64,000 nt of DNA from Candidatus Humimicrobiia bacterium (GCA_049647085.1 JBARXA010000016.1:310593-374592), one strand, 5' to 3'. Shown: positions 4,769 to 61,392, numbered from the stretch's first letter. Translations and numbers: made by a program. Notes: a model not told the origin generated them from the letters alone.

Positions 4769-4880
4769 AAACTACCCCCTAAATCTTTAAATCTATATCC
4801 CTTTGCAATCTTTAATATTTTTTTCTATTTATGTTTAAGTATACCTCTTTTTACTCTGACCATTTATTTTATTTATTATT

Positions 4881-4908
4881 AAAAAACCCCTCGCCTTAGG
4901 ACGAAGGG
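4881..4908 (-). terminator. intrinsic terminator after rplT (possibly the terminator arm of a T-box-like attenuator for pheST)
   Basis: Minus-strand RNA CCCUUCGUCCUAAGGCGAGGGG forms a ~9-bp stem including G-U pairs, followed by UUUUUU. Confidence 0.6.
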
Positions 4909-4914
4909 TATTTC

Positions 4915-4934
4915 TCCATGGTACCACCTAAGTT
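4915..4934 (-). promoter_or_regulatory. T-box-like motif (AACUUAGGUGGUACCAUGG) immediately 5' of the terminator
   Basis: Resembles the T-box consensus AAUUAGGGUGGUACCGCG; the UGGU bulge matches a tRNA-Phe discriminator A. No Stem I or specifier loop identified. Confidence 0.3.
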
Positions 4935-4980
4935 GGTTTTTGAATAACCCACTCAGTGCTAAGTACTTAACTGTAAAAAA

Positions 4981-5340
4981 TTATGCTGAAATTTTTTCCT
5001 TTGCAATATCTACAAGTTTAGAAAAAGCTTTTGGGTCATTTACTGCAATCTCAGACAAAACCTTTCTATTTATATCTATTTCAGCAAGTCTAAGACCATT
5101 TATAAATCTTGAATAACTCAACCCATGTTCTCTAACAGCTGCATTAATTCTCATTATCCATAATCTTCTAAAATCCCTTTTTCTTCTTTTTCTATCCCGA
5201 TAAGCATATTTCATAGATCTTAAAACTTGAGTCTTCGCTACCCTATAATTCTTACTTTTTGAACCTCTATATCCCTTTGCAAGTTTCAGTATCTTTTTTT
5301 TCTTCTTATGTTTAAGTACACCTCTTTTTACTCTAGTCAT
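4981..5340 (-). CDS. rplT: 50S ribosomal protein L20
   Basis: MTRVKRGV... start with GGAG RBS 5 nt upstream; the ORF-track start at 5370 is 10 codons too long. Confidence 0.93.
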
Positions 5341-8382: not shown

Positions 8383-8818
8383 TATTTAAATATTATTTAT
8401 TTGAACTATTTAAGAGATGTGTTTGCAACTCTTAATCTTTTTAAAAATATTCGTACATTGAAAACTAAAAATGATTAACAAGTTTTACTTTTTGTTTTAT
8501 TTAGAAGTTTGTTTATATGTTTTGTTTATAAATAATACCAAATTAGATGAATTATAAACAAGTTAAATTAACACTTTGTTTATTGTTCTTTATTTTTTCA
8601 ACCTAGCCTTAGCTTCACTAAGAGTAAGTTTTATCTTATCCCCGTTAAGAGGAAGGAAAGGAAATTTAAAATCAATAATTCACCAAAAGAAGGTGAAAAT
8701 TTTAATTAACAATCTATTATAATATACTCGGATTTTTTTATATTATAATGTATTAAGTTATTACTAAAAAAATTATTAAATACTAATTAACTAGATTAAA
8801 AAATATTGTGAAACTAAA

Positions 8819-9964
8819 TTGGAAAATAATTATTATGTTTTAGGTATAGATGAGGCAGGATATGGACCAGATATTGGTCCACTTGTTGTAACATCTTCAC
8901 TTTTTAGACTTAGTGAAAAATATCATTCAGAGAAATTTTGGGAGACTCTTTCTGAAATAGTCTCAAAAAAAACAAAAGAATTTCCAGAAAAAGTAATAGT
9001 TTCAGATAGTAAAGATATATTTAAAAATCATCCAAAAAATTATTTAATAGGTGAAACTACTACTTTGTGTTCTTACTGTCTCTTATATCCTGTGCCACTT
9101 AATTTTCAAGAATTCCTACAAAATATATTCTTAGATAACTTAGATTTATTTCAAAAAAGATGCAAAACTTTTAGCAAATACACATATAGAATGTGTTGGG
9201 GTAATAATGATTTTTTTTCTGAAGATCCTTTAAATTCTAAAAATTTAAATCCAAAACCCTATATTAATGATTTATTCCCAAAACTAAAAAAAGTTATAAA
9301 AAGTTCAGGAATTGATTTAATAGATATAAAAAGTATAGTTTTATGTCCACATTTATATAATAAATCAATTACTAAAAAAAGGAAGCTTTTTTTAAATTAC
9401 TTACAATTTGAGAGATTAATAGAAAATGCTTTAAAAAGGATTTTGATAAAAAATATTTCAGTTAAAGATAAAGAAGAGACAGAAAAGTTAGAAAAAAAAT
9501 ATAAAAAAGAAACTATAAATTTTAAAAAGAATGAGCAAAAGAATAATTTAAATTCAATTTTTGTAATTGCTGATAAGCTTGGATCAAAAAAATATTATAT
9601 TAATTATCTTAAAAGTGGATTGCTTGGAAATTTCAAAATAAAAATTTTGGAACAAAACAGAAATATATCTTCTTATGAGCTATCAAATAGTTTGGCAGTA
9701 AGAATATCATTTATAAAGGAAGGTGACAAAACCCACTTCCCCATTGCTTTATCTTCTGTTTTTTCAAAATACATTCGAGAGAGGTTTATTAAAAATATAA
9801 ATGAATTCTTTGCAACAAAAATTCAAAATTTAAAACCAACAAAGGGGTATGCATATAAAATAGAAAAATTTATTGAAGTTACAAATGATGTAAGAAAAAA
9901 ATATGATATTGCTACAAATTGTTTTTTAAGAAAAAGGGATAGTCTCTTGCGCTTATTTGATTAA
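8819..9964 (+). CDS. RNase HII-like protein with a large internal Lys/Asn-rich insertion
   Basis: N-terminal VLGIDEAGYGP and VSDSKDIF match RNase HII catalytic motifs; IFVIADKLGSK and GDKTHFPIALSSVFSK match the later motifs. About 180 aa of low-complexity sequence separates them. TTG start in the ORF track, no clear RBS. Confidence 0.45.
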   Translation: MENNYYVLGIDEAGYGPDIGPLVVTSSLFRLSEKYHSEKFWETLSEIVSKKTKEFPEKVIVSDSKDIFKNHPKNYLIGETTTLCSYCLLYPVPLNFQEFLQNIFLDNLDLFQKRCKTFSKYTYRMCWGNNDFFSEDPLNSKNLNPKPYINDLFPKLKKVIKSSGIDLIDIKSIVLCPHLYNKSITKKRKLFLNYLQFERLIENALKRILIKNISVKDKEETEKLEKKYKKETINFKKNEQKNNLNSIFVIADKLGSKKYYINYLKSGLLGNFKIKILEQNRNISSYELSNSLAVRISFIKEGDKTHFPIALSSVFSKYIRERFIKNINEFFATKIQNLKPTKGYAYKIEKFIEVTNDVRKKYDIATNCFLRKRDSLLRLFD

Positions 9965-10001
9965 TTAGATTCTTCCACTCCACTTAGATTGACAATCTGA
10001 T

Positions 10002-10796
10002 TTATTCTTTAAGGAAAGACCAGATTCCATCTAAAATCCAATCAGGTTTTATTTCTGATTTACTTACTTCTTCCCTGCTAACTACTCCTGTAAGTACTAA
10101 TGCAGTAGAAATACCTGCTATTTTACCTGCTAAAATATCTGTTTCTAATCTATCTCCAATAATTAATGTTTGTTCTTTATTACCATTAAATTTGGAAATG
10201 GCAATTTCCATAATATAAATATTTGGTTTTCCAATAACTTTTGCTTTTACTTCAGATGCAGTCTCAATAGATGAAACTATTGCTCCTGCTCCTGGAATTT
10301 CTCCCTCTGGGGTTGGAAATGTAGCATCATAATTTGTAGCAATAAAAATTGCGCCATTTCTAATGGCAAAATTGGCAATTTTCATCATTTCATAATTAAA
10401 ATCTGGGTCTTTTCCTATAATAACAAAATCAGCTAAATGTGCATCCTTACCATCGATTAAATTCAACCCTATTTTTCTAATCTCATCCTTTAAAGCTCTG
10501 GCTCCAATAACATATACTTTTTTACCTTCGATATTGTAGTTTTCATAAAGGTATTTTGCTGTAGCTGTTGATGAGGTTATTATTTTGTCATTATCCACTA
10601 TTATATTCATAGACTTTAATTTCTTCCTATAACCTTTGCTATTTCTTCCAGAGTTATTGGTCAAAAAAATAAATTTTTTATCTCTTTTTTTTAACTCATC
10701 AATAAATTCCTTGGCTTTATGGATAGGTTCATCCTGAATATATATAACTCCATCTAAATCTATTATAAAATTTTGAAATTTTTCTATTAATTTCAT
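10002..10796 (-). CDS. HAD-superfamily hydrolase, subfamily IIA (NagD-like sugar phosphatase)
   Basis: IIDLDGVIY N-terminal HAD motif I, FLTNNS motif II, GDRLETDI motif IV. Confidence 0.7.
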   Translation of the reverse strand: MKLIEKFQNFIIDLDGVIYIQDEPIHKAKEFIDELKKRDKKFIFLTNNSGRNSKGYRKKLKSMNIIVDNDKIITSSTATAKYLYENYNIEGKKVYVIGARALKDEIRKIGLNLIDGKDAHLADFVIIGKDPDFNYEMMKIANFAIRNGAIFIATNYDATFPTPEGEIPGAGAIVSSIETASEVKAKVIGKPNIYIMEIAISKFNGNKEQTLIIGDRLETDILAGKIAGISTALVLTGVVSREEVSKSEIKPDWILDGIWSFLKE

Positions 10797-10818
10797 CTTT
10801 AATAATCCTTTTGTATCA

Positions 10819-11574
10819 TTACAGGTCAGATAGAAATTTTCTTTTTTTCTTCTTTCTATTTAGAAATTCATTAACTATATAACTGGCAACCATTGTTGGG
10901 GTTGTACCAGGACCAAATCCAGCATCATATCCTAATTCTTTTGCAAGAGCATTAGAAATTCTTGGACCACCACAAATTAAGATAATCCTGTCCCTTATAC
11001 CCTCTTCTTTAAGTAATTCCAGAAGTTTTGATAAATTATATATATGAATATTTTTTTGAGTGATAATCTGAGAAATCCCAACTACATCTGCTTTTATACC
11101 CAATGCTTTCTTTATAAGCTCCTCTGACGGAACCTGGGAGCCTAAATTGATTGCATTGAAGAAATTATAACTTTCCAGACCATGATCTCCTGCAAAACCT
11201 TTTGCACTTAAAATAGCGTCTAATCCAACTGTATGAGCATCAGATTCAATTGCAGCTCCTACTATAGTTATCTTTCTTCCTATTTCATTTTTAACAATTT
11301 TCTCCATCTCTTCATGACTTAATATTTTGTATTCTTTAGCTTTAATCTTTATTTGGTCTATTTCTATCTTATGTTTGCAACTTCCATATATAACAAAAAA
11401 AGTAAAATTGGGATCAAGACTTTCCTGCTTAACAATTTTTGGTTTTATTATCCCCATTTTCTCACAATATTGAGTAGCTATAGCTGTAGCTTTATTATCA
11501 TTCTTTATCGGAAGCGTAAAACTAATTTGGACCATTCCATCATTTAAGCTATCACCATATGGTTTTATCTCCAT
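10819..11574 (-). CDS. kamE: lysine 5,6-aminomutase beta subunit (B12-binding)
   Basis: 251 aa with cobalamin-binding DxHxxG motif (ESDAHTVGLD); translationally close to kamD. Confidence 0.7.
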   Translation of the reverse strand: MEIKPYGDSLNDGMVQISFTLPIKNDNKATAIATQYCEKMGIIKPKIVKQESLDPNFTFFVIYGSCKHKIEIDQIKIKAKEYKILSHEEMEKIVKNEIGRKITIVGAAIESDAHTVGLDAILSAKGFAGDHGLESYNFFNAINLGSQVPSEELIKKALGIKADVVGISQIITQKNIHIYNLSKLLELLKEEGIRDRIILICGGPRISNALAKELGYDAGFGPGTTPTMVASYIVNEFLNRKKKKRKFLSDL

Positions 11575-11603
11575 AACTGAATACCCCCGTATTTAATAGC
11601 AAA

Positions 11604-13145
11604 TTAAACATTATTAAGCTCTTTGAAGAAAGGATTAAAATAGTCATCTTTCTTTTCTATTACGCCATCTAATCCTCTCCCGGAATTTGTATCCCTTTTT
11701 ATATCTGCAAAAATACCCTTTTCTATTGCTTTAAAAAGTCCAATATCATCAATCTCTTCAAGAAGATTAACTGCATTTTTCAATACCTGATTTGCTCTTT
11801 TAGCAATCTTGCTATCTTTATTAAAACTTATTTGTTCACCAAGATTTTTAGCACAGTTAAAAATGTATTTTGCATTTTTTATACTAATAAATCTATCCTG
11901 TAAAAATGGTGTATGAATAGCTTCAGTAGGCATACCTAAAAGCTGAATTCCCTGATTAGTTAAAATACCTGTAAAATTGAACATTCCATCTAAAAGATTA
12001 GAGAAGAATATATCACCTGTTTTATAAACTGTTGGTGGCATATATTTTATTGGATAATCTGGAAACAAGTCTCTTACAAGTTGCGCATGAGCTATTTCAT
12101 AAATAAGAGAATCCTCTAAATGTGGATTTATCTGAAATGCATGACCTAATCCTATCTGCTCAGCTTTCAATCCAGAGAAAAGAGCGAATTGTTCATTTAT
12201 TAATTGTGATGCAATTACAGTATGAACAGCTTCTATTGCATCAGCTGTTGTCAAATAGTTGTCTTCACCTGTATTAATAATTATACCTGCAGCTGCATTA
12301 ATCATTCTTGAAAAATATTGGTCTATAAATGTTCTTTTTGTATTTATCCCTCTAAAAATGATTCCATATAGACTGTCATTTAGCATCATGTCTAATCTCT
12401 CAAATGCCCCCATCACTGCAATCTCTGGCATAGCTAACCCTGAACAATAATTTACCTGTCTTATATATCTTCCTACCTCATCAGAAACTTCATCAAGAGC
12501 TTTTCTCATTACCTTAAAGTTTGCTTGAGTTGCATATGTTCCACCATAACCAGTTGTTGTTACACCATATGGAACATAATCCAGTAAGCTCTGAGCTGTA
12601 GAGCGAATTACCGCTATAACATCAGCACCTTCTCTAACTGCTGCTTTTGCTTGAACTACATCCTCATATATATTTCCAGTGGCTACAATGACATACAACC
12701 AGGGCTTTGAAGGATCCCCTAACTTTTCAATTAGCTCATATCTCTCTTTCTTTCTTTTTTTAATAACTAAACAGGCATTTTTTACTAATTTATTAATTTC
12801 AGGAATTACCTTTTCCTTCTCAAGCTTTGGTACTTTTTTTAAGTCAATTTCTTTTTGTGAAATCATCTCAGATAATTTTTGAGCATTCACATCATAAAAA
12901 CACATAGCATTAACAAAGGGATATAATATTCCAGAGCCAAGTTCATCTCTGAAACTGTCCACTACCATGTTTGGTAATGGAACATTATCTTTATTAACTC
13001 CATCAACACCTAAAAGTCTAATTGTTGCTCTTTCAATTGTAGTTGTAGAATTTTTATCAATAAAATTCTGAACTTTAGAAGCTATTCTGTTTGCATAATC
13101 CCTGGCTTTTTTCACCATATCTTTGTCCAAAATTAATTTAGCCAA
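11604..13145 (-). CDS. kamD: lysine 5,6-aminomutase alpha subunit
   Basis: 513 aa, size and sequence character of KamD, paired with a B12-binding small subunit. Confidence 0.75.
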   Translation of the reverse strand: MAKLILDKDMVKKARDYANRIASKVQNFIDKNSTTTIERATIRLLGVDGVNKDNVPLPNMVVDSFRDELGSGILYPFVNAMCFYDVNAQKLSEMISQKEIDLKKVPKLEKEKVIPEINKLVKNACLVIKKRKKERYELIEKLGDPSKPWLYVIVATGNIYEDVVQAKAAVREGADVIAVIRSTAQSLLDYVPYGVTTTGYGGTYATQANFKVMRKALDEVSDEVGRYIRQVNYCSGLAMPEIAVMGAFERLDMMLNDSLYGIIFRGINTKRTFIDQYFSRMINAAAGIIINTGEDNYLTTADAIEAVHTVIASQLINEQFALFSGLKAEQIGLGHAFQINPHLEDSLIYEIAHAQLVRDLFPDYPIKYMPPTVYKTGDIFFSNLLDGMFNFTGILTNQGIQLLGMPTEAIHTPFLQDRFISIKNAKYIFNCAKNLGEQISFNKDSKIAKRANQVLKNAVNLLEEIDDIGLFKAIEKGIFADIKRDTNSGRGLDGVIEKKDDYFNPFFKELNNV

Positions 13146-19415: not shown

Positions 19416-19502
19416 ATTAATTCCCTAACATATTATTATCAATAATAGTTTATCACATTATAATTCTTTTTAGAAATTTAATTAAAAGATATTTTTTTTC
19501 AT

Positions 19503-19559
19503 GAAATTGCGGAGCCTGTTCCGATAGAGATTGCTCTCGAGCGAAGTGAAGGGATTGAG
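19503..19559 (+). repeat. copy of the repeat-family 5' segment plus one unit
   Basis: GAAATTGCGGAGCCTGTTCCGATAGAGATTGC aligns with GAGATTGCACAGCCTGTTGTGGGATAGATTGC at 26773. Confidence 0.55.
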
Positions 19560-19625
19560 TATTAACCTAACTTTTTAACAATACATATTATTTTATTGTA
19601 CATTAGATTATTTAAAATCCCAGAT

Positions 19626-21040: not shown

Positions 21041-21259
21041 TTATTGTTCGGTAACTTCCCGCTTAACATCAAAAGATATTTGAACTTTTACTCTATATTC
21101 AATAATTTTTCCCTCTTCAACCTTTGCCCAGGAATTTATCACATCTACTCTGTCAATACCCCTGATTGTATGTGATGCATCTGTAATTGCATTTCTCGCA
21201 GCATCACTCCAACTTCTAAAAGAGGAGCCTTCAAGTGTAATAAATTTTTTTACTGCCAT
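21041..21259 (-). CDS. dodecin-family flavin-binding protein
   Basis: MAVKKFITLEGSS...AITDASHTIRGIDRVDVINSWAKVEEGKIIEYRVKVQISF has the dodecin pattern. Start placed at the ATG 6 nt after AAGGAGGT; the track start at 21277 lies within the RBS. Confidence 0.6.
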   Translation of the reverse strand: MAVKKFITLEGSSFRSWSDAARNAITDASHTIRGIDRVDVINSWAKVEEGKIIEYRVKVQISFDVKREVTEQ

Positions 21260-21464
21260 TTTCATACCTCCTTGCATATTAAAATGATTAAGTTATTTAA
21301 AGATATTTTTACATAATTATTGATTCTATTTAAATATAATTATTATTAAATATTTTAAAAAAAGCAATTTTTATTAATTGAAAAAAGAAAAAATTTGAAT
21401 CAGTAATGTTACTACTATATTTTAAAACTAAAATTATTTATGATATCTAAAAAATATTTAGTAA

Positions 21465-21673
21465 GAGATTGCACAGTTTATTCCTTCCCCTTTCCTTCAT
21501 TCCGTTCAAGTACAGACTTTACACTCGAGCTTCAATTCCCCTCCCTTTATGGGAGGGGGTAGGGGGAGGGTTTGATGGAGATTGCCACGCCACCTTCAGT
21601 GGCTCGCAATGACAACCGGGATCTTGTTCGCAATGACAGTCAGGAACTTGCTCCGAACAGGCTGTGCAATCTC
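21465..21673. repeat. MITE-like element with 12-bp perfect terminal inverted repeats (GAGATTGCACAG / CTGTGCAATCTC)
   Basis: The terminal motif recurs at 26773 and in variant form at 19503; the interior contains the GC-rich hairpin/G4 element and GCAATGAC units. Confidence 0.55.
21533..21570 (-). repeat. GC-rich 38-nt hairpin/G4-motif repeat, copy 1 (reverse orientation)
   Basis: Exact reverse complement of the 38-mer at 62598-62635; the plus strand reads GGGAGGGGGTAGGGGGAGGG. Confidence 0.8.
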
Positions 21674-21695
21674 ATTAAAAATAGATTTTAGACTA

Positions 21696-21731
21696 TGTCA
21701 TTGCGAGGAGCGTTAGCGACATGGCAATCTC
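21696..21731 (+). repeat. unit of the GTCATTGCGAG...GCAATCTC repeat family
   Basis: GTCATTGCGAGGAGCGTTAGCGACATGGCAATCTC. Confidence 0.6.
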
Positions 21732-21788
21732 ATTTAAATTTATTATATTTAACATTTTGTTTTAGTAACAACAAAATTAAAACTTCTA

Positions 21789-21817
21789 TTGACCTTTTAA
21801 TATAATTCTTATAGAAT
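21789..21817 (+). promoter_or_regulatory. candidate sigma-70-type promoter (TTGACC, 17-nt spacer, TAGAAT) about 300 nt upstream of the APC permease
   Basis: Hexamer match by eye only. Confidence 0.3.
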
Positions 21818-22112
21818 TACAATATAAATTTAATACAATTAATATTAAAATCATTATTAATTTTATATTAATAGTTCTATTTTAAGCAACAAATTCAAAT
21901 ACATATTCGTCAAAAACCAAAATATGAACTCAAATATTGAGCAGGAATCTACTAAAGTAAGATTATCAAAATCAATATAATACTCAATAATAATATAATT
22001 GATAATCTACTAAAGAAAGGAGGCATATAGAGAATTAATTTTTTATTTGAAAGATTATTCTTTCAAATCACCTCTTGTATAAATATTTTATTAATGTTAG
22101 GAGGTTATTTTT

Positions 22113-23807
22113 ATGCAAGAAGAAAAAAAGTTATTTACTAGAAAAGCTACAGGATTAGTACGAGAAATAGGAGTTGGAACTGCAGTTCTTATAGCTATTG
22201 CTAATGTTGTTGGGTTGGGATGGCAAAAAAGAGTATTTCAGGCAACAGGTTGGGCTCCGGTTGGTGAGAGTAAATTTCTTCTTGGAATTCATCCAGTTGT
22301 AATGGCGTTCGCTATTACCGGAATAATTATTTTGGTATCATTGTACTGTTTTTCAATGTTATCAGCTGCTATGCCAAGATCGGGTGGTGGATACATATTC
22401 ATTTCCAGAATTCTAAATCCAGGCCTTGGGTTTGTAGCTACATGGTTACAGTTCTTTGCTGTTGCTGTTTCTTATGGATTAATAGCTGTTGCAACAATGG
22501 AAGCTGTCTGGCTTTTTGCAGGATTAGCTGGTGTTACACTTCCTGGATGGCTTACTAGTCCTATTGGATTATTCTTGTGGGGTGTATTAGTACTTGTAAT
22601 CTTTAGTGGTATCGCATTCTATGGAATAAAATTGACTGGAAAATTACTTCAATGGCTATTCTGGATTCCAGCATTTATATTAGTGATTGTATATATACTA
22701 TTCATTATTGCAACTCCAGGAACTATGGAGACAGGTGTTCAATCACTATTTGGTGCTAATGCTGCTGAGTATACACAAGCAGCTATTGATCAGGGAATGG
22801 CAGATACAGCAGCAGGAAATACCTACTGGGGAGCAGTTGGAACTGCAATGTTAGCAGCTTATTGGGCTTATATTGGTTATGCTGCTGCTTCATTTGTTGC
22901 TGGTGAGGTAAAAGAAGCACACAAGAGTTTACCAAAAGCTATGTTTACATCTGGATTAGTTATTATTGGTATCTATATGACTATTTCAACACTAATGGCA
23001 AGAGCTGCAATGATGGCTGGAAAAGTTGGAGATTTCTCGTTGATGTCAGCTATAGGATATCTTAATTTCGGAGGAGGAAGCTTTGCAGATGCTGGCTTAA
23101 ACTCAATTGGTGGATGGATGCCAGTTATTGGTGCAATATCAGCTGCAGGACGTGGATTTGGAGCAGGATTTATGTGGATACTGATATTATTTGCAGCTTT
23201 ATGGGTTGCTAATGACATTCCACCCTTCATTTTGACATCTTCAAGAATGATATTTGCTATGGCTTTTGATAGAGTTTTACCTGATAAATTAGCAAAAGTT
23301 AATGAGAAATGGCATTCACCAGTAAACGCAATTATTTTTGTGTCACTTGTTGCAATATTTGGTTGTGCTGCTGAAGCTGATCTTTTTGGAAAGAGCGGTA
23401 TATACTTAGGTGAATTCATACACTCAATCATAAATCCTGGTGGAGCTATTGCAGCGACTGACATATGGGATGCAATATTCTTCTTAGTTGTATGTATTGC
23501 AGCATTTTATTTCCCAATAAAAAAGCCTGATATATTTGAGAGGTCACCATTTAGAGCTAGTAAAACAGTTACTCAAATAATTGCAGCCCTGGCAATAATA
23601 GGAAATCTTATTGCTTTATGGGTATTCGCTACTAATGAACATGCGTGGAATCTTTTGAAAATAGACAGTTTGAGAGCTGCAATGCCATTCTTGTTCACAA
23701 TTTTCCTTATCGCTTTAGGGTTAGGAATCTACTTGTACTACAGTAATAAAGCCAAGTCAACAGGTGTTGAGCTAACTACAATATTTACGGAAATTCCTCC
23801 AGATTAA
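22113..23807 (+). CDS. APC-superfamily amino acid permease
   Basis: 564 aa, about 12 TM segments, Gly/Ala-rich helices typical of amino acid/polyamine/organocation transporters; TAGGAGGT RBS. Confidence 0.8.
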   Translation: MQEEKKLFTRKATGLVREIGVGTAVLIAIANVVGLGWQKRVFQATGWAPVGESKFLLGIHPVVMAFAITGIIILVSLYCFSMLSAAMPRSGGGYIFISRILNPGLGFVATWLQFFAVAVSYGLIAVATMEAVWLFAGLAGVTLPGWLTSPIGLFLWGVLVLVIFSGIAFYGIKLTGKLLQWLFWIPAFILVIVYILFIIATPGTMETGVQSLFGANAAEYTQAAIDQGMADTAAGNTYWGAVGTAMLAAYWAYIGYAAASFVAGEVKEAHKSLPKAMFTSGLVIIGIYMTISTLMARAAMMAGKVGDFSLMSAIGYLNFGGGSFADAGLNSIGGWMPVIGAISAAGRGFGAGFMWILILFAALWVANDIPPFILTSSRMIFAMAFDRVLPDKLAKVNEKWHSPVNAIIFVSLVAIFGCAAEADLFGKSGIYLGEFIHSIINPGGAIAATDIWDAIFFLVVCIAAFYFPIKKPDIFERSPFRASKTVTQIIAALAIIGNLIALWVFATNEHAWNLLKIDSLRAAMPFLFTIFLIALGLGIYLYYSNKAKSTGVELTTIFTEIPPD

Positions 23808-23846
23808 AATTCTGGTTGTTACAAACATACTATTGAAATTCGATAT

Positions 23847-23885
23847 ATCAGCTCCTGTTTAAAGCAGGAGCTGATTATCATTTAA
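23847..23885 (+). terminator. probable terminator of the permease gene
   Basis: 11-bp perfect stem ATCAGCTCCTG / CAGGAGCTGAT with a 7-nt loop; the following T-run is weak. Confidence 0.45.
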
Positions 23886-24024
23886 ATATTATAATAAATA
23901 GATAAATAAGAATAAAATAACATATTTAATATATAAAGTGAGGTCTTGTTAAACAGTTTTGCCTCGTTATATTCAGGACAGGATCTAAATAAAGCTAAGG
24001 AACTACAAAAAAACTGGAAAATAT

Positions 24025-24519
24025 ATGAAAAGAGTAATTGATTTAAGAAACTTTATAGATAATATAGAAAATCAATTAATTAAAGGAAGAGGAAAGTGGA
24101 TTGCGGAGTTCAATGAATCATTTATAAACTATTCACTTGATAATTTTGTTTTTCCATTAGTTGTTAGAGGACAAACAAGAAGTAAAGGTTTTTTACTCTC
24201 GAGATTTTTTGCTTACTTTGCCATGCCAAACTATTTGGTGTCATGCTTTGTATATCCCTCAGAAATAAATTCATATCTAAAAAAAGAGAAACTAAAAATA
24301 TTACTTATAGAGATATCTAAAATGATGAAGAAGAACAATGTAAAATGGTCCTGGCTTATCATCCCAAAAGAGGGTGAATTTAATCAAAGAATAATAAAGT
24401 GGGTTGAAAAAAATGACCTTTCTAATATTGGTATTGCTTTAGTAAACTTAAATACTAAAAATATTTTAACTAATAATTCAGTTATAGGAAGAAAAATAAA
24501 AACTATTTTAAAATTCTAA
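24025..24519 (+). CDS. hypothetical protein
   Basis: 164-aa ORF; its stop overlaps the start of the next gene (ATGA). Confidence 0.4.
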   Translation: MKRVIDLRNFIDNIENQLIKGRGKWIAEFNESFINYSLDNFVFPLVVRGQTRSKGFLLSRFFAYFAMPNYLVSCFVYPSEINSYLKKEKLKILLIEISKMMKKNNVKWSWLIIPKEGEFNQRIIKWVEKNDLSNIGIALVNLNTKNILTNNSVIGRKIKTILKF

Positions 24520-24950
24520 TGAAGAAAATATCAAAAATAAATTTTGGAGACTTAGGTAAATCATTCTCTATCTTTTTTATTCTTATAGTGACATTACGGA
24601 TTATTACAAATTTCTTATTCACAAAGATTATAATCGTAGAGTGGTGGATTTTAACAATAGAGCTAATTTTAGCTGCTATTGTATCCTATTTGTATTATAG
24701 ACTTAAATATCACCCCACCTTTAGTTATGACAAAGAAAGTTTAATTTTAGAAATTGGTAAGGAAAAAATATCCTCAAAATGGAAAGATTTTAAATTTATC
24801 TCTTTGTATTATAGCGGTTTAGGGAAAACTTCTTTAAGATTATATATAAACGATATCTATAAAGATGATTATATTGAAATCCCAGTCTCTGATTTAGGAC
24901 TTTCTCCAAAAGAATTTAGAGAAGAAGTTTCGAAATTAATTTCAATATAA
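24519..24950 (+). CDS. hypothetical membrane protein (2 predicted TM helices plus soluble C-terminal domain)
   Basis: 143 aa; hydrophobic stretches at about residues 15-35 and 40-60; translationally coupled to the upstream ORF. Confidence 0.4.
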   Translation: MKKISKINFGDLGKSFSIFFILIVTLRIITNFLFTKIIIVEWWILTIELILAAIVSYLYYRLKYHPTFSYDKESLILEIGKEKISSKWKDFKFISLYYSGLGKTSLRLYINDIYKDDYIEIPVSDLGLSPKEFREEVSKLISI

Positions 24951-24951
24951 A

Positions 24952-25899
24952 TTAACCTTCTACTCTCTGGAGTCTAAGTATTTTATCACCTTCAATTTCT
25001 ACCAAATAACCTTTAAATATACCCTCTCCATATTCACTTCCTGGATTGAAACATACAGTCCTACCAATTTTTATATATCCTGGGCTTTCATGAATGTGTC
25101 CATGAAGTCCTACTAATGGTTGGTATTTTTCAATAATTTTTCTAACAGCATGACTTCCTACTGGTATCTCCCGAGGTTTACCACCTATAACTATTATATT
25201 TAAATCTTTATCTACCATTGGTGCATAATCAAGATAAGAATCATATGGTGGACAGTGGATGCAAAATACAGCAGTCTCTAAATTCTTAACTTTAGCTACT
25301 ACCTTCTCCAATTTCTCCTCCATCTCTTCCTCTGAGCATTCTCTTGGTGAATCAAAAGGAGTAGGATTTGTCCAACCAAAACAGAGAACTTCGTGCTCTC
25401 CATCTAAGTCAACCACCTCTTCCTCACCAAATGTAATTCTTGGATCTTTCTTAATTACTTCATCAATAGCAAACTTATCATCATTTCCAGGACTCATTAT
25501 AACCTTGCACTTATCAGGTACTCTATCCGATATTAATGTTAACCAATGTTCAACAATATCACATTCTAATTTTTCGAATAAATTTTCCCTGTATTCCTCA
25601 TTATTTCCTATTTTGACACTTTCCTCCGGAGTAGTTCTATACGGAAGATATGAAGCCATTCTTACTTTTTTTTCATATTCAGGTAATTCTTCTTCAGATA
25701 GAATATACTCTCTTCCTAAAAGATGTGAAGTATATTTCCCGTCCTCCCTTTTTATAATTGGAACCATTATTTTACCAGTCATATCTCCACTTAAAACAAG
25801 AGCATCCAAATCATAAATCTTTGCAGTATTCAGAAACTTTCTCCAGACTGTTTCTGAACCATGCAAATCTGTTGCGAACATAAATCTTGTTTTAGCCAT
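24952..25899 (-). CDS. metallophosphoesterase (calcineurin-like phosphoesterase)
   Basis: Motifs ATDLHGS, LSGDMTG, GNDD and GHIHES match the dimetal phosphoesterase signature. Confidence 0.75.
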   Translation of the reverse strand: MAKTRFMFATDLHGSETVWRKFLNTAKIYDLDALVLSGDMTGKIMVPIIKREDGKYTSHLLGREYILSEEELPEYEKKVRMASYLPYRTTPEESVKIGNNEEYRENLFEKLECDIVEHWLTLISDRVPDKCKVIMSPGNDDKFAIDEVIKKDPRITFGEEEVVDLDGEHEVLCFGWTNPTPFDSPRECSEEEMEEKLEKVVAKVKNLETAVFCIHCPPYDSYLDYAPMVDKDLNIIVIGGKPREIPVGSHAVRKIIEKYQPLVGLHGHIHESPGYIKIGRTVCFNPGSEYGEGIFKGYLVEIEGDKILRLQRVEG

Positions 25900-25901
25900 T
25901 T

Positions 25902-26669
25902 TTACCTCCCCACTTCTTCAACTTCTTTATACCATTTTTTCTTTATACCAACCTTAGACCTTATTTTCCATTTCAGGCTTTTAGGTTCACCTTCTATTCT
26001 TTCAAGTATTTTATCAATTCTATCTGCAACTATTTTTCCATTTTCATCCGTCAGAGATTCAAATTCACCAAGGAAATCTTTAACTTTTTTAAGGTTGGTC
26101 GTCACTGTATAATAATACCCCCAATCTTTTGATAAGAGCTTAGATATATAGTTCATGTTTACTGTTTCTTCTTCCTTATCTCCAACATCATGCTCGAGTA
26201 GCATTATAATAGTATCTTTGATATCCTTTGGATTTATCTCTACTATCTGCATCTTTTCTAATAATATATCAGTTAGAGTGATGGTAGGGTCATCCAATTC
26301 CAATCTATTTCTAAAATCAACCTTATGGCACATATCTAACTCATTAAAAAAGATATCTACTTGCCAACCTTTTTCATCACTCCAGTAGATTTGTCTTTTT
26401 TTACCATATAATGCAAAAAATCTTGGATTTATTGGTTCATAACCTAAGTCTTTAAAAAACTCTCTCATTCCTTCTCTAAACTTTCCATATGTCATTAAAT
26501 CTATATCAGTAAGTGGTCTCTTCATTTCATCATATAGATACCTATATTTTGGACTATGATTTTTTACTGCAATTGAACCCAATAATCTAAAAATTATCCC
26601 TTTTTCTTTGCCTTTTTCAATTATCTTAAATGCTTCTTCAACAAAAGCTTTGTCTCTTTCAGGATCCAT
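25902..26669 (-). CDS. hypothetical protein, possible nucleotidyltransferase fold
   Basis: LLGS...LTDIDL followed by QVDIFF resembles the GS/DxD/D pattern of Pol-beta-type nucleotidyltransferases, but the spacing is atypical. 2-nt gap to the downstream phosphoesterase. Confidence 0.35.
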   Translation of the reverse strand: MDPERDKAFVEEAFKIIEKGKEKGIIFRLLGSIAVKNHSPKYRYLYDEMKRPLTDIDLMTYGKFREGMREFFKDLGYEPINPRFFALYGKKRQIYWSDEKGWQVDIFFNELDMCHKVDFRNRLELDDPTITLTDILLEKMQIVEINPKDIKDTIIMLLEHDVGDKEEETVNMNYISKLLSKDWGYYYTVTTNLKKVKDFLGEFESLTDENGKIVADRIDKILERIEGEPKSLKWKIRSKVGIKKKWYKEVEEVGR

Positions 26670-26772
26670 AACCCCTCCTATTTTTATTAATTATATCAGT
26701 AAAATTTAAAGAATCAATATATTGCATTACCTTTTATCACAATTACAAAATGTTAAAAATAATAAATATAAA

Positions 26773-26913
26773 TGAGATTGCACAGCCTGTTGTGGGATAG
26801 ATTGCTTCGCTTACGCTCGCAATGACATACTAGAATCTCGCTCCTCGCAATGACACATTGTCAACATATATTTTTATCATTGCGAGCAAGCTCCTGGTTG
26901 TCATTCAGGAGAG
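26773..26913. repeat. cluster of GAGATTGCACAG / GCAATGAC / GTCATTGCGAG repeat units
   Basis: Starts with GAGATTGCACAGCCTGTT, identical to the terminal repeat of the element at 21465-21673, followed by at least three GCAATGAC/GTCATTGC units in both orientations. Abuts the 3' end of the aldolase gene. Confidence 0.6.
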
Positions 26914-27542
26914 CTTTCCTTTAATATCTTTTCTAAAGCTCTTACTTGCTTATCTGATAGAATTTTAGGTTCACCTACCTGAAGAGCTTTATGATAAATT
27001 TTTGCTGATTCTTCTACTAATATCGCAATTAAAACTGCATTCGATAATGAAGAGCCTATTGTTAAAACTCCATGACTTTCTAAAAGAACTGCTGATCTAT
27101 TAGAAAGTTTTTTGAGTGATTTTTTTGCCAATTCTATTGAACCAGGAAGTGCAAAATCCACAACGGGAATATCTCCACCTACTGAAAAGAAAGTCTCAAT
27201 ATGTATAAGAGGAATGCTCTTTTTAAGTACAGCAAAGCATGCGGCATATGGAGAATGCGTATGAGCAATTCCAAAGATATCCTCCCTATTTTTATAAATT
27301 TTTAAATGAATGGGAGTCTCATATGATGGTTTATTTTTACCTTCCACTTTATTTCCATTTATATCTAAAACTACAATGTCATCTGGATTTAAAAATTCCC
27401 TGAATACTCCATGTGGAGTAACAAAAATATATCCCGTTTCTTTATCCCTCAAACTAAAATTACCAGTTGTTGGGACAACTAATCCTAATTTTTCAGATTT
27501 TTGAGCCCAGAAAATAACTTCATTTTTTAAATCTTCATACAT
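26901..27542 (-). CDS. class II aldolase/adducin-family protein (fuculose-phosphate aldolase / ribulose-5-phosphate 4-epimerase-like)
   Basis: 213 aa with the HTHSPYA metal-binding motif. Confidence 0.75.
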   Translation of the reverse strand: MYEDLKNEVIFWAQKSEKLGLVVPTTGNFSLRDKETGYIFVTPHGVFREFLNPDDIVVLDINGNKVEGKNKPSYETPIHLKIYKNREDIFGIAHTHSPYAACFAVLKKSIPLIHIETFFSVGGDIPVVDFALPGSIELAKKSLKKLSNRSAVLLESHGVLTIGSSLSNAVLIAILVEESAKIYHKALQVGEPKILSDKQVRALEKILKESSPE

Positions 27543-27704: not shown

Positions 27705-27792
27705 TGGTGTCGGAGGGGGGACTTGAACCCCCACGAGCTACTCACTCACAAGGTCCTCAACCTTGAGCGTCTACCAATTCCGCCACTCCGAC
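27705..27792 (-). tRNA. tRNA-Leu (GAG)
   Basis: 88 nt with long variable arm; anticodon stem CAAGG/CCUUG, loop UUGAGGA; CCA encoded. Confidence 0.88.
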
Positions 27793-29730: not shown

Positions 29731-31560
29731 TTAAATAATTTGAGACCAATATAAAATTATAGTTAGAAATCCATCAGTAAATATAAAAATTATAAAGGCT
29801 ACTATTAGGGATTTTGCTTCAGATTTCTTTAGATATATAAATAATGTAGCTAAACTAACAAGAAAAATTATTATAGGTAATGTCCAAATCCAAATACTAA
29901 TAAATTCAGCAGGAATTAAATCTAAAAATGGTGGAAATAATAGATATGAAGGTGTAATTAGTAGTTTTGCTAAATAATATAAAATTATTGTAACAATTAA
30001 AACTATCTTTGTTTTTCCTAAATTAAGACTATCTTCCCCTCCCGTAACTATATAAAATATCCCTATCAAAATAAGTGAGACAAGTCCCCAGGGAATCACT
30101 AACAAGATGAATATAGATGCACCAAATAAATGAAATATAGTATCAGTTATCCCAATAACTATATCTATAGGAGTTAAAAAATCAAGATTTTTTCTTATAT
30201 CTGATGAAGTACCAGCAAAAAATACTTTATGTTGACCCACTTTTAATTTATCAAGCCATGTTAAATAAATGTTGTTATCCTTATCAATCAAAATTTTAGG
30301 TGAAAACGAAAAATGGTCAGTTTTATTTGTTAGTTGATAACCTAATGGTTCACCATCTCTATAAACAACTAATGCTAATTGCATTTTTCCTTTGTTTTTT
30401 TCAAAAACTTTTAAATCACAAACTAATAATAATTTTGACCTTTGTCCTACTGATACACCTGGCATACTTACATAATCTGTAGAGGGAAACCCTGTAAAAA
30501 TATCTTCTGGTATTAGAGAAATACTGTCAACTTTTCCTCTTTCTTTATCTTTTTGCTCTTGAGTAAAATCAATTTTCCTTTCTCCTATCTGAAGAGAATC
30601 TGTTTTTGATAAATATGGTAAGCTTATTCTTTTTGATGATTGAAATGATGGTTTATTTATAGGAAATGTTAAATAACTTATGTGTGCACTTCCAGCAGAT
30701 AAACCAGACCTGAATTCAGTTGACCAAAAAACATAGACATAATTATTATCTAATCCAATTATAGGTTCAGAGAGAACTTTTCCAGTACTAATAACAAAAT
30801 CTCCAACTTTTACTTTTTCTTCTAATTTGCTTTTTTTAACATCAAAAGTTGAATAATATATATCATTTCTATCGCCAAGTATAGATTGAAGCCAAATCAA
30901 ATGGATATTTCCCAACTTATCTATTTGAAAACTTGGTGATTTTCCTTCAGATATTATTAGACTATTTTCTGATGTAATATCACCTTTGCTATTTAGTTGG
31001 GTATAATAAATTCCTTTCTGGTCTTTCTCTTCACCTTCCCAAAAAATTTCAACATTTCCGCCCTTGTTTAACCCAATTTTATAATTTTTAACTTCTGATT
31101 CAGCAATTGAAATTAATTTAGGTTCAGTTAATTTATCACCATTAGAATCCAGTAGAATGTGAAATAAACATGTATTATCTTGATACTTATCTAACCATGT
31201 AAGATATAGATTTTTATGACTATCTAATAAAATCTGTGAATTTTTGGGGTTAACAAAATTAAAATCAAGAAATTTTTGTAATAATATATCTGCTTTACTG
31301 TTTAATTTAGTAAAATTTAAAAGTCTTTTATCAGCTTTTTTAGCGCTCCAAATCAGATATAAATTTTTATCTTCATTATCAATCTGAATTGAGACTGGAA
31401 TACCTGAAATTGTTTTACCTAAGTTCTTCCCACGACTCCAATCCAATGAAATTTTTTTACTTAGTGGTGAAGTGATGTTTAATCTTGCAAAAATAACAAT
31501 TATGATAACAATTGCTAAGATGATTATGTAAGGTAAGTATTTTTTTAACCTTTTATTCAT
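29731..31560 (-). CDS. hypothetical membrane protein: N-terminal anchor, repeat-containing extracytoplasmic domain, C-terminal polytopic domain
   Basis: 609 aa; recurring NLYLIW / NLYLTWLD / NIHLIWLQ / YVYVFWST / NIYLTWLD motifs suggest a beta-propeller-like repeat domain; 4-5 TM helices at the C-terminus. Confidence 0.45.
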   Translation of the reverse strand: MNKRLKKYLPYIIILAIVIIIVIFARLNITSPLSKKISLDWSRGKNLGKTISGIPVSIQIDNEDKNLYLIWSAKKADKRLLNFTKLNSKADILLQKFLDFNFVNPKNSQILLDSHKNLYLTWLDKYQDNTCLFHILLDSNGDKLTEPKLISIAESEVKNYKIGLNKGGNVEIFWEGEEKDQKGIYYTQLNSKGDITSENSLIISEGKSPSFQIDKLGNIHLIWLQSILGDRNDIYYSTFDVKKSKLEEKVKVGDFVISTGKVLSEPIIGLDNNYVYVFWSTEFRSGLSAGSAHISYLTFPINKPSFQSSKRISLPYLSKTDSLQIGERKIDFTQEQKDKERGKVDSISLIPEDIFTGFPSTDYVSMPGVSVGQRSKLLLVCDLKVFEKNKGKMQLALVVYRDGEPLGYQLTNKTDHFSFSPKILIDKDNNIYLTWLDKLKVGQHKVFFAGTSSDIRKNLDFLTPIDIVIGITDTIFHLFGASIFILLVIPWGLVSLILIGIFYIVTGGEDSLNLGKTKIVLIVTIILYYLAKLLITPSYLLFPPFLDLIPAEFISIWIWTLPIIIFLVSLATLFIYLKKSEAKSLIVAFIIFIFTDGFLTIILYWSQII

Positions 31561-38535: not shown

Positions 38536-40200
38536 TTAATCAAGTTCTTTCAGTCTTTTATACGCAACAGTGCCACCATTACCTGCTTCATAAACTGTTT
38601 TGAAATTTTCCTTATATTTTTCAATTATCGGGTACACATACTTCATAAACCGTTCATTTGTTTTATCCTGTATTATAAAATCAGATTTATTCAAATACTT
38701 TTTTTGTTTTTGTTCATCATCACTATATGGAAATGATATCGTCTCTCTATTAGTTATAATATAAACTAAGAAATTACTCCTGCTAAGTATTGAACTGCCA
38801 TCATAAGAATTTTCCTTTAACCAATACATTGCATCATAGAAATTCTCCCATGATTTACCATATATAAATTTTTTATTATTTTTATAATCAAGACTCTTAT
38901 TTATTACTAAATATCCACCATAGATACTTCCAGTTAAAAATATAATAAAAGTTAGTATTAAAACTGTTGATGCAAATATTTTAATTATTTTTTTTGTTGA
39001 AATTTTTAGTATTATCTCTTTAAAAAACAAGACCCCACTTGAAAAAAGAATGATTAAAATAGGAATTACGCAAACCGTAAGTCTTTCTGATTGCCATGGC
39101 CACATATGAAGACCGATAAAATAAAGTATTAAATATATTGTATAAATATATTTCTTCTTTTTCAAGAAATAAATAATTCCTAAAATAACTAAGATTATAG
39201 AAAGTAAAATTGCAATAAAATATAAATCTTTAATTTTTAATATTTCAAAAAAATTTGAAATATTCCCTTTTAAAATATCTTTTAAGCCATTTGTCAGTTG
39301 CGAAAAAACTGCTTTAAAATAATAATCGAAATTTGATTTTGCTCTTTCAAAAAATTTTATAAAATCTATATTTCCTTCGGAATAGTCACTGAGATTGACC
39401 TTGAAAAACTCACTTACATAGCTAACTTTATTTGAAATCATTGCTCTTAAGTTCCACAAAATAACTGGTACTAATGTAAATACAAAATAAATTCCTGATC
39501 TAATTTTGTTCTCACTTAAAAAGATTTGTATAAATATTGCAAGGATGATGAAAATACCAATTGGTCTGATTAAAAATGTAAATATTGAAAAAAATATCAA
39601 TAAAATAAAATTAAGATTGAGATGCTTTTTTATTCTCTCAAATAAATTATTTTTATCCTCAGAATGTTTGTCATTGTCATCCTGAGCATAGCGAAGGATC
39701 TCAAAATTAAGATTTAACCTACTACTTTCATTCTCAGAATAATTACTCTTACTATTGTTTAAGTATTTAATATTACTTTCTTCGCTAATCTCTCTATAAT
39801 TTAAGTTATAAAAATATAAAGTGATAAGAAGAAAAAGATTATATACAGTCTCTGTCATTACTTTTGATGAGAAACTTAGAAGTTCAGGATGAGTTATAAA
39901 AAAAATTGATGCCAGCAATAAAGTTAATCTATCCAGATCCTTTTTTGCTACAAGATAGAAAAATAATACTGAAAGAATAAAACATGAAACTACAATTATT
40001 TTAGATACTATTAAAATATTTGATTCAATAAATTTAGAACCTAAAATAAAATAAAAAAATGATAATATAAGTGGAAAACCTGGATATGCCTTGTAATCAG
40101 GAGGATTTTCTGGATAATTTATTAATTTAAATCCAATTCCTTGAGAAATGGATTTTCCAAGTATCATATATCTTGCATTATCACCAAAACAAGATAACAC
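38536..40200 (-). CDS. glycosyltransferase family 39/83-like membrane protein (ArnT/PMT-like); 5' end uncertain
   Basis: Polytopic membrane protein with a DNARY-type motif near the N-terminus. A predicted TM helix lies in frame upstream of the track ATG with no ATG; contains an in-frame repeat-family insert. Confidence 0.55.
   Translation of the reverse strand: MLSCFGDNARYMILGKSISQGIGFKLINYPENPPDYKAYPGFPLILSFFYFILGSKFIESNILIVSKIIVVSCFILSVLFFYLVAKKDLDRLTLLLASIFFITHPELLSFSSKVMTETVYNLFLLITLYFYNLNYREISEESNIKYLNNSKSNYSENESSRLNLNFEILRYAQDDNDKHSEDKNNLFERIKKHLNLNFILLIFFSIFTFLIRPIGIFIILAIFIQIFLSENKIRSGIYFVFTLVPVILWNLRAMISNKVSYVSEFFKVNLSDYSEGNIDFIKFFERAKSNFDYYFKAVFSQLTNGLKDILKGNISNFFEILKIKDLYFIAILLSIILVILGIIYFLKKKKYIYTIYLILYFIGLHMWPWQSERLTVCVIPILIILFSSGVLFFKEIILKISTKKIIKIFASTVLILTFIIFLTGSIYGGYLVINKSLDYKNNKKFIYGKSWENFYDAMYWLKENSYDGSSILSRSNFLVYIITNRETISFPYSDDEQKQKKYLNKSDFIIQDKTNERFMKYVYPIIEKYKENFKTVYEAGNGGTVAYKRLKELD
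39670..39702. repeat. repeat-family unit inserted in-frame within the glycosyltransferase CDS
   Basis: GTCATTGTCATCCTGAGCATAGCGAAGGATCTC; 33 nt, encodes EILRYAQDDND in a low-complexity loop. Confidence 0.5.
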
Positions 40201-43387: not shown

Positions 43388-43485
43388 TTAATTTTCTCCT
43401 TTCTTTTAAAAATGTTTATTTTAAATTTAAAAATTAATATTAAGGAAAATCTTATCATTTTACCAGATTCTTTAATATATTTGAT

Positions 43486-43520
43486 GAGATTGCTTCGTCG
43501 CTTACGCTCCTCGCAATGAC
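43486..43520 (-). repeat. 35-nt unit of the GTCATTGCGAG...GCAATCTC family (reverse orientation)
   Basis: Plus strand GAGATTGCTTCGTCGCTTACGCTCCTCGCAATGAC; between gap and whiA. Confidence 0.6.
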
Positions 43521-43561
43521 AAATAAATAACAGATATCATCTATAGGGTTTCTAATATTTT

Positions 43562-61241: not shown

Positions 61242-61392
61242 CTTTTAGAAAATAAATTAAAAGTCTCACTTTTTAATTTAGTGAAGTTATAAGTTATTAA
61301 AAATTAAATTACATTTAAGAATTAAATTAGTACAATATTGTCTTAATAATAACACAATAAAAAAAGCATTTATTAGAATTTTAAATATACAC

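Follow-up and report, generated by a model that had tools for sequence, protein, structure and literature searches.

Introduction

Several families of short dispersed repeats are known in bacteria, such as the repetitive extragenic palindromic sequences and bacterial interspersed mosaic elements (REP/BIME) of enterobacteria, the BOX elements of Streptococcus pneumoniae, and miniature inverted-repeat transposable elements (MITEs) such as the Correia elements of Neisseria. These are short (≈35-210 nt), non-coding and intergenic elements, which are GC-rich compared to their host and often adjoin the 3’ end of a gene. Built as modular mosaics, they have imperfect inverted termini and contain palindromes, and they are multi-copy, nested and variably present among close relatives. 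A different type of locus is represented by tRNA-linked islands and integrative elements, in which accessory-looking genes near a tRNA gene are accompanied by repeats on both sides and by a slightly deviant GC content at third codon positions (GC3). The current work concerns a 64,000-nt stretch of DNA from a Candidatus Humimicrobiia bacterium (named “window”), and more specifically its segment 21465-26913, which shares the features just listed for both types of system: repeats with the properties of the above families occupy the spacers flanking five genes in the vicinity of a tRNA gene.

This segment had been put forward in a preliminary description as a possible acquired cassette bracketed by direct repeat copies. 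The explanation reached here, to which an overall probability of about 70% is assigned, is that the repeats and the five genes (named “module”) are two unrelated things overlapping at this locus. The boundaries drawn for the segment coincide with those of the module for reasons unrelated to the repeats. From the earlier proposal, a recent repeat-bounded insertion is refuted, while a discrete, horizontally transferred module finds support.

Results

Gene order is kept in relatives in which the repeats are absent or different

The five genes sit between a dodecin gene (21041-21277, minus strand) and a class II aldolase gene (26901-27542, minus strand). They specify an amino acid-polyamine-organocation (APC) permease (22113-23807, plus strand; 564 aa; Pfam AA_permease_2, PF13520, E = 1.6e-30), two proteins without Pfam match named u164 (24025-24519, plus strand; 164 aa) and u143 (24519-24950, plus strand; 143 aa), a calcineurin-like metallophosphoesterase (MPE; 24952-25899, minus strand; 315 aa), and a nucleotidyltransferase-like protein with a Pol-beta fold (NTase; 25902-26669, minus strand; 255 aa). 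The gene content given earlier (a permease, two unknown proteins, a metallophosphoesterase and an NTase-like protein) is thus borne out by the open reading frames (ORFs) and by Pfam, as is the position of a tRNA-Leu(GAG) about 800 nt beyond, this gene (27705-27792) being located 792 nt past the segment end. The aldolase gene separates the five-gene block from the tRNA gene.

The locus is reproduced exactly or near-exactly by a number of contigs (L001-L006, L194 and L195). In L007-L009, which share ≈90% nucleotide identity with the window, the same order of SBP, tRNA-Leu, aldolase and the five genes is found, continuing in L007 and L008 to the dodecin and alanine dehydrogenase genes, yet the left repeat cluster (21463-21733), the stretch 26792-26879 and the repeat copy at 19478-19568 are all absent. 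The latter copy represents a clean insertion relative to L008, whose right spacer contains a single repeat unit, while the window has ≈88 nt extra (26792-26879) nested inside that very unit. In L013 and L014 (NTase ≈95% identical at the amino acid level) the order is again the same, L013 reaching only the start of the permease gene and L014 reaching dodecin, and the aldolase–NTase spacer contains no repeat, the left side of L014 carrying a different set of repeat modules. Likewise, L010 (NTase 79% identical) shows the same order as far as the contig reaches before it ends, and no repeat in the aldolase–NTase spacer. The order conserved in relatives is aldolase–NTase–MPE–u143–u164–permease, and tRNA-Leu is located at the same place in L008, L010 and L014; it is not found beside the module in other phyla.

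Since relatives keep the gene order yet lose or vary the repeats, the repeats are incidental and subject to fast turnover, and the block is not a recent repeat-bounded insertion; retention of the order in relatives which lack the repeats or differ in them (L007/L008, L013/L014 and L010) is, within this lineage, the very outcome named beforehand as speaking against a cassette. Comparison of these sequences shows the module to be an apparent old resident of this lineage and not a recent insertion. No empty site was found among the few relatives available, the block being present at the same place in L001-L010, L013, L014, L194 and L195, and no integrase or transposase was identified among the Pfam-annotated genes ≈10 kb to each side (as read from the identical or near-identical contigs) or among the five module proteins.

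Several of the contigs that match the window break in or beside the repeats, because multi-copy repeats interrupt assemblies: L002 and L003 start inside the left repeat cluster (window position 21588), L004 and L006 end inside the right one (window positions 26791 and 26827), and L194 and L195 end shortly past the alanine dehydrogenase gene, near the repeat at 19478-19568.

The flanking repeats belong to a dispersed family

The 12-mer GAGATTGCACAG is present at 21465-21476 (plus), 21662-21673 (minus) and 26774-26785 (plus), that is three times versus 0.21 expected by chance, a count matched by none of 100 shuffles. The direct copies at 21465 and 26774 are identical over these 12 bases only and then diverge at once. 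Bracketing by direct copies, as formerly described, therefore holds insofar as the 12-mer occurs on both sides, but only 12 nt are common, the longer likenesses are inverted, and none of this is specific to the segment. The inverted likenesses involve 21655-21673 (minus), which pairs with 26774-26791 (plus), and a 48-nt arm at 21724-21771, consisting of GCAATCTC and an AT-rich part, which is an inverted copy (85% complementarity) of 26734-26781.

The left cluster (21463-21733) comprises a 209-nt composite (21465-21673) and a separate 38-nt unit (21696-21733). The ends of the composite form inverted termini of 12-15 nt (GAGATTGCACAG / CTGTGCAATCTC), within which a CCCCTCCC..GGGAGGGG hairpin unit and several GAGATTGC..TCGCAATGACA units are nested, and the cluster has an RNA fold z-score of -4.45 versus shuffled controls. 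The right cluster (26734-26900), which starts at the aldolase stop codon, is composed of the AT-rich arm followed by nested GAGATTGC../..TCGCAATGAC units. Individual repeat units contain hairpins.

For the 48-nt inverted arms, a role as transposon ends or as a shared operator was considered and rejected, given that relatives with both the genes and the promoter lack the arm, and that it recurs at other metagenome loci. The arm recurs in L107, L099, L151 and L094, which are metagenome loci retrieved by means of a repeat 18-mer and not by means of the module; L094, which was checked, codes for no module protein. The arm is therefore assigned to the dispersed repeat family.

At least six of the intergenic spacers in the window carry repeat modules. 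Apart from the two flanking clusters, the same repeats are located at four further places: the copy at 19478-19568, a single 38-nt unit at 43484-43521 (ATGAGATTGCTTCGTCGCTTACGCTCCTCGCAATGACA), tandem copies of the CCCCTCCCATAAAGGGAGGGG unit at 61391-61491, and a copy of the CCCCTCCC unit at 62593-62653, 44 nt of which (62593-62636) are 100% identical, in inverted orientation, to 21532-21575. These identical 44-nt CCCCTCCC..GGGAGGGG units lie 41 kb apart and inverted with respect to each other, which suggests recent movement or gene conversion. Matches to the core motifs of the repeats number 23 in spacers versus 3 in the 56 kb of coding sequence. Of the 25 spacers of at least 100 nt, 5 contain two or more such motifs, and one further spacer has one.

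Outside the window, an exact 18-mer of the repeat unit matches public metagenome contigs 93 times, in 57 of these cases continuing as the same unit, and the contigs concerned span 25-55% GC. The unit GAGATTGCACAGCCTGTTCCGAG...CTCCTCGCAATGACA (loci L093-L185) was observed in contigs of ≈29%, 40-45% and 52-55% GC. A near-identical mini-element thus appears to be common to very different organisms, which is unusual for REP-type repeats.

The repeats are short, non-coding, multi-copy and intergenic, contain palindromes and inverted termini, and display insertion polymorphism. By these properties they are shown to be mosaic elements of the REP/BIME or MITE type, short and GC-rich, which form a dispersed family with multiple copies. 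The elements occupy AT-rich spacers and insert within each other, close relatives differ by their gain and loss, and they delimit nothing. No Rfam family was found, either in a search of the whole window at gathering thresholds or in E-value searches of 21280-22130, and searching the literature for the core sequences of the repeats gave matches only to unrelated stretches in eukaryotic or clinical papers. The flanking repeats may be part of a cross-phylum family of mobile GC-rich mini-elements without a name in Rfam or in the literature searched.

The five genes as a module in Bacteria and Archaea

A species-level scan (one genome per species) retrieved at least 554 NTase loci, 80 of which were kept for neighbourhood counts. 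An MPE gene is located within 5 kb of the NTase gene in 61 of the 80, and an APC permease gene (≈530-570 aa) in 63 of the 80. In 36 loci the sequence extends 5 kb or more to each side; among these, both MPE and permease are detected by ORF clustering in 28, and seven miss one or both. In six of these seven, in which spurious antisense ORFs in high-GC DNA had masked the genes, tblastn restores what was missing, leaving only L024 without either. The taxa with NTase loci include Chloroflexota, Bathyarchaeia (several paralogous loci per genome), Thor- and Promethearchaeota, Thermococci, Alphaproteobacteria, Actinomycetota and Desulfobacterales.

The permease–NTase–MPE triad is present in Chloroflexota, Bathyarchaeia, Asgard archaea, Alphaproteobacteria and a cultured haloarchaeon. 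In the latter, Halobellus limi, the triad in the order MPE–NTase–APC permease resides on a megaplasmid (NZ_CP031312.1, 386259-389795; L197), where it follows genes for an IclR regulator, an Fe-alcohol dehydrogenase and an aldehyde dehydrogenase, the NTase being annotated in RefSeq only as “hypothetical protein”. All five genes occur together in three phyla and in unrelated surroundings, namely in Chloroflexota (L015-L018), Bathyarchaeia (L026, L029, L033 and L044) and a bacterium of 68% GC (L187/L188). In L187/L188 the secE-nusG-rplKA-rplJ(L)-rpoBC cluster, otherwise canonical and nearly universal in its arrangement, is split after rplA and before rplJ by the five-gene block (8160-12793), which has the same GC content as its flanks. 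Between genomes, the three transcription units of the module (see below) are reshuffled in order and orientation and yet stay together. L192 has the permease–u164–u143 trio without NTase and MPE. No relatives were found in viral contigs, PHROGs giving generic matches only, and a literature search on the triad returned nothing relevant. Conservation of MPE across domains is very high (64-81%). This distribution supports a reading of the five genes as a discrete conserved module that has been passed horizontally among Bacteria and Archaea over long times.

The neighbours of the triad elsewhere were also compared. In Alphaproteobacteria they comprise a glutamine synthetase-like ligase, a TetR protein with a BetI-type C-terminal domain, an AllG-like protein and an alpha/beta hydrolase; in Bathyarchaeia and Thorarchaeota, an MttB-family methyltransferase with its corrinoid protein, a class-III aminotransferase and an aldehyde dehydrogenase. 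The operon of L189 encodes an AsnC regulator, the permease, an arginase-family hydrolase, MPE, NTase, a DHO_dh/Fer4 protein and a CN-hydrolase, and L186 encodes an arginase-family hydrolase, MPE, NTase, an FMN reductase and a CN-hydrolase with no permease nearby. These recurrent neighbours point to amine-type nitrogen compounds. The NTase–MPE pair without a nearby permease, within metabolic operons, is seen in L186 and also in L011/L012.

Base composition

The window has a GC content of ≈30%, and the permease gene, at 0.379, has the highest GC content of its 46 ORFs (mean 0.306), the preliminary description having noticed a GC content above that of the surroundings; this excess, however, sits in codon positions 1 and 2 (GC1 0.47, GC2 0.44) with a GC3 of just 0.223, and is thus due to amino-acid composition. 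The GC3 of the five genes ranges from 0.216 to 0.243 versus a window mean of 0.192 (standard deviation 0.029), which is the top five-gene running mean in the window and is reached by random sets of five genes with p = 0.005. A compositional check of the cassette proposal therefore gives a mixed outcome: GC3 is slightly raised, by a small shift, and the overall GC of the block falls within the host range. Although weak, the GC3 signal is real, and it agrees with an acquisition that is old and for the most part ameliorated.

Proteins of the module

The permease matches PF13520 (1.6e-30) and PF00324 (4.7e-19) and has two further hydrophobic stretches beyond the Pfam core. Its NCBIfam matches are far under the family cut-offs and no subfamily is reached, so that no substrate class is assigned; the nearest solved structures are those of SLC7 LAT2 and Asc-1, with E-values of only ≈1e-8. 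It is the hub of the module and a divergent member of the APC superfamily.

The u164 protein has no obvious transmembrane segment, shows the conserved motifs GRGRWIADFNESF, KGFLLSR, PNY and KWSWL, has no match in Pfam, NCBIfam, PADLOC or PDB, and belongs to a rare family (75 representatives among 1.84 billion proteins). The u143 protein consists of two N-terminal hydrophobic helices and a C-terminal domain of ≈80 aa, and is without PDB or Pfam match. In the window the u164 stop and the u143 start share one base, in line with the translational coupling earlier attributed to this pair, but the overlap is not conserved in L008, where an AT-rich stretch of ≈88 nt (L008 12155-12242) splits u164 from u143. 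Natural u164–u143 fusions exist in both domain orders (P0271, P0276, P0287 and P0282). Certain u164-domain proteins (P0307, P0312 and P0322) were observed to carry an unrelated N-terminal extension of 150-190 aa. An archaeal 226-aa membrane protein (family c12), often encoded between permease and MPE, was considered as an equivalent of u143 or u164 and rejected (hhalign probability <5%).

In MPE the dimetal ligands are all invariant, the motifs DxH, GD, GN[HD][DE], H, GH and GxH being present. Its model (predicted local distance difference test score 92.8) best matches the structures of aq_1956, TT1561 and MPPED2; searched against PDB, the single sequence gives no match, and a profile gives only aq_1956 at 1.3e-4. 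More than 7,400 homologues are found, the best 120 of which are 63-95% identical.

The NTase carries the signature of the Pol-beta superfamily, i.e. hG[GS], DxD, a third carboxylate on the core sheet and an alpha-beta-alpha-beta-alpha-beta fold, with its predicted catalytic triad intact. No Pfam family reaches threshold (PF14907 is matched at E = 0.097) and there is no significant PDB sequence match, the top fold match being the MenT1 toxin. Neither NTase nor u164 nor u143 is named by Pfam, NCBIfam, PADLOC, PHROGs or PDB.

Transcription units and other features of the window

The module is predicted to comprise three transcription units, namely the permease gene, the u164/u143 pair and an NTase–MPE operon. 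The first two are divided by a terminator-like 13-bp hairpin (23847-23875, plus strand) located 3’ of the permease gene and before the pair. The MPE gene is located 2 nt downstream of the NTase gene, with co-transcription predicted, and upstream of these two lies a promoter-like site (TTGATT, 16 nt, TG-TATAAT; 26690-26717, minus strand), which is kept in repeat-free relatives, its sequence being conserved in the L013 and L014 spacers. The permease leader (21876-22112, plus strand) contains two copies of AATCTACTAAAG, a 9-bp hairpin, a possible anti-Shine-Dalgarno pairing, and an inverted repeat AGATTATCAA/TTGATAATCT. In comparison to L008 it exceeds the coding sequence in conservation (≈97% versus ≈86% identity); it has no Rfam match at E ≤ 1, and its fold z-score of -1.84 is not significant.

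Strand usage is extremely biased, the minus strand holding 43 of the 46 ORFs of at least 100 aa; the plus-strand ORFs are 8819-9964, the permease and u164, plus u143, three of these four being module genes. The claim that the segment is the only part of the window outside core housekeeping is not sustained, given that two large minus-strand ORFs (29731-31560 and 38536-40200) are without Pfam match and that ORF 8819-9964 (plus strand) is marginal in this respect. The latter, a minority-strand ORF of very low GC content (0.239) with a 436-nt spacer before it, shows a marginal RNase_HII match over ≈19 residues.

Around 4818-5334 (minus strand), ≈80 nt of the 5’ end of rplT (L20; 4981-5370) are duplicated just upstream of pheS (3728-4768), this copy generating a mini-ORF with the product MVRVKRGILKHK*. 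Between rplT and its copy, a sub-threshold T-box match (4894-5067; 38 bits versus a gathering score of 93, E = 7e-7) contains the motif AGGTGGTACC, is followed by a terminator-like stem and a T run, and overlaps the 3’ end of rplT.

Discussion

Gene order retained where repeats are absent or different, together with the dispersal of those repeats at loci devoid of the module, separates the two components that happen to meet in this segment. For the module itself, the presence of NTase–MPE inside catabolic operons, sometimes free of a permease, favours pathway enzymes over permease regulators. The permease would import a small amine-type nitrogen compound (an amino alcohol, a quaternary amine, a polyamine or a guanidino compound), and NTase and MPE would be cytoplasmic pathway enzymes. 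The NTase may nucleotidylate the imported compound or an early intermediate, as ANT (aminoglycoside nucleotidyltransferase) and Lnu enzymes do to hydroxyls of amino compounds, after which MPE would hydrolyse the resulting phosphodiester; by trapping or activating the substrate, the two steps together would make it ready for downstream catabolism. The u164 and u143 proteins would represent a permease-associated accessory complex, anchored in the membrane by u143. We infer this mechanism, uptake of an amine-type compound followed by NTase and MPE pathway steps, tentatively and with somewhat less than even confidence. The more far-reaching proposal, in which the triad, with or without u164/u143, represents an undescribed and widespread uptake system operating by nucleotidylylation and a dedicated phosphodiesterase, or by switching of transport, and moves as a cassette (in one case into the rplKAJL–rpoBC cluster), and in which unnamed cross-phylum repeats are present in addition, is considered doubtful.

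A number of observations weigh against the explanation as a whole. Regarding the mechanism, the recurrent neighbours vary between lineages, and the five-gene form, this window included, has no catabolic enzyme attached; an NTase followed by a hydrolase acting on one compound looks futile if the hydrolase cuts the very bond that the NTase has formed; tRNA-modifying toxins (MenT1 and TglT), in addition to small-molecule NTases, are among the nearest structural relatives of the NTase; and aq_1956 and TT1561, to which MPE is closest, were deposited as hypothetical proteins and are uninformative on substrate. Regarding the history of the module, high identity across phyla could reflect strong constraint instead of transfer, and the exact dodecin protein, used to seek an empty site, retrieved only same-strain contigs. 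Regarding the repeats, a consensus-structure test by RNAalifold gave no covariation across 28 repeat units, and no conserved RNA structure is claimed; no target-site duplication is evident, including at the 19478-19568 insertion; and a RAYT or transposase partner was not identified within the 64 kb, no search having been aimed at one.

Among the other explanations, the best surviving one is that NTase and MPE are the writer and eraser of a reversible nucleotidylation of the permease or of u164/u143, by which transport would be switched in the manner of GlnD/GlnE. Tight linkage of the three genes to the permease is seen irrespective of which catabolic genes lie downstream, the five-gene form lacks a catabolic enzyme, and the NTase resembles the macromolecule-modifying enzymes of the MenT/TglT type, all of which this explanation would accommodate. 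It is nevertheless unlikely, considering that the NTase–MPE pair also occurs in metabolic operons without a nearby permease (L186 and L011/L012), that the permease with u164/u143 exists without the pair (L192), and that the permease does not exceed MPE and NTase in conservation, a pattern seen rather in enzymes whose substrates are small and universal.

Alternatively, the NTase could make a nucleotide second messenger that MPE degrades, coupling substrate availability to a cellular response. The resemblance of MPE to the nucleotide phosphodiesterases MPPED2 and Rv0805 is compatible with such a role, but the best structural matches of the NTase are not signal synthases, neither a receptor nor an effector domain was identified in the module, and Pfam detects only transporter domains in the permease, making this quite improbable. 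Nor was the combination found that marks the cyclic oligonucleotide-based antiphage signalling system (CBASS), a cGAS/DncV-like nucleotidyltransferase (CD-NTase) with an adjacent effector.

A toxin–antitoxin or anti-phage defence role of NTase and MPE, as a pair merely travelling with the permease, is very improbable. The MenT1 toxin is indeed the top fold match of the NTase, MPE has a weak partial PADLOC match to the candidate system PDC-S10 (4.5e-8), and individual Bathyarchaeia genomes hold several paralogous copies. However, the NTase has no PADLOC match, relatives in viral contigs were not found and PHROGs matches are generic only, the identity of MPE across domains (64-81%) is unlike that of fast-evolving conflict genes, and the pair is consistently linked to the permease and to catabolic genes. 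A MenT/AbiEii (DUF1814) assignment is likewise contradicted, as there is no DUF1814 Pfam match, the neighbour is MPE and not an antitoxin, and PADLOC gives no match.

Finally, a recent cassette with the direct repeats as its att-like or transposon-end termini, integrated beside tRNA-Leu(GAG), is extremely improbable, since the above-chance 12-mer on both sides, the slightly raised GC3 and the recurrence of the same five genes in unrelated phyla are outweighed by direct copies common over 12 nt only, by the same repeats elsewhere in the window, by relatives that keep both block and flanks with repeats absent or varied, by the lack of an integrase or transposase among Pfam-annotated genes within ≈10 kb, by the aldolase gene between the block and a tRNA gene fixed in place, and by the finding that GAGATTGCACAG matches the tRNA (27705-27792) nowhere, even with one mismatch.

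The repeat-bounded acquired cassette as first proposed would have been ordinary, and is largely wrong. Novelty lies mainly in the gene association and secondarily in the unnamed repeat family, a mini-element shared by very different genomes, which matters in practice as it breaks up metagenome assemblies. The association of permease, NTase and MPE (with or without u164/u143) is undescribed, being without a name in Pfam, NCBIfam, PADLOC and the haloarchaeal RefSeq annotation, and spans at least several hundred species in both prokaryotic domains, among them abundant uncultured sediment lineages (Bathyarchaeia, Chloroflexota and Asgard archaea). Should the transported compound be the substrate of these enzymes, a new biochemical route for the assimilation of nitrogen compounds would exist in these lineages, and Halobellus limi, as a tractable cultured host, is a possible experimental entry point.

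When compared to described systems, the repeats differ from REP/BIME, BOX and MITEs in that the same unit GAGATTGCACAGCCTGTTCCGAG...CTCCTCGCAATGACA is present in contigs of 25-55% GC, apparently well beyond one species. Unlike tRNA-linked islands, the locus displays no integrase, its repeats are unrelated to the tRNA and thus provide no tRNA-derived att sites, a housekeeping gene lies between block and tRNA, and the block is syntenic in all relatives examined, the few available showing no empty site. The NTase shares 8-17% sequence identity with ANT(2’’), LnuA, MenT1 and TglT, from which it differs by a distinct C-terminal helical domain and by having neither an antitoxin partner nor an antibiotic-resistance context, while MPE is only 16-19% identical to the Metallophos_3-type proteins aq_1956 and TT1561 and to MPPED2. 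The permease is only distantly related to characterised APC members. As in transporter-led amine catabolic clusters such as puuP-puuA-puuC-puuE of Escherichia coli and gbsAB of Bacillus subtilis, an APC-family importer adjoins enzymes of amine catabolism or a BetI-type repressor in other genomes with the triad; unlike the Puu and Gbs systems, the window has none of those enzymes in or beside the block, and NTase and MPE, the constant partners here, are without counterpart in either pathway.

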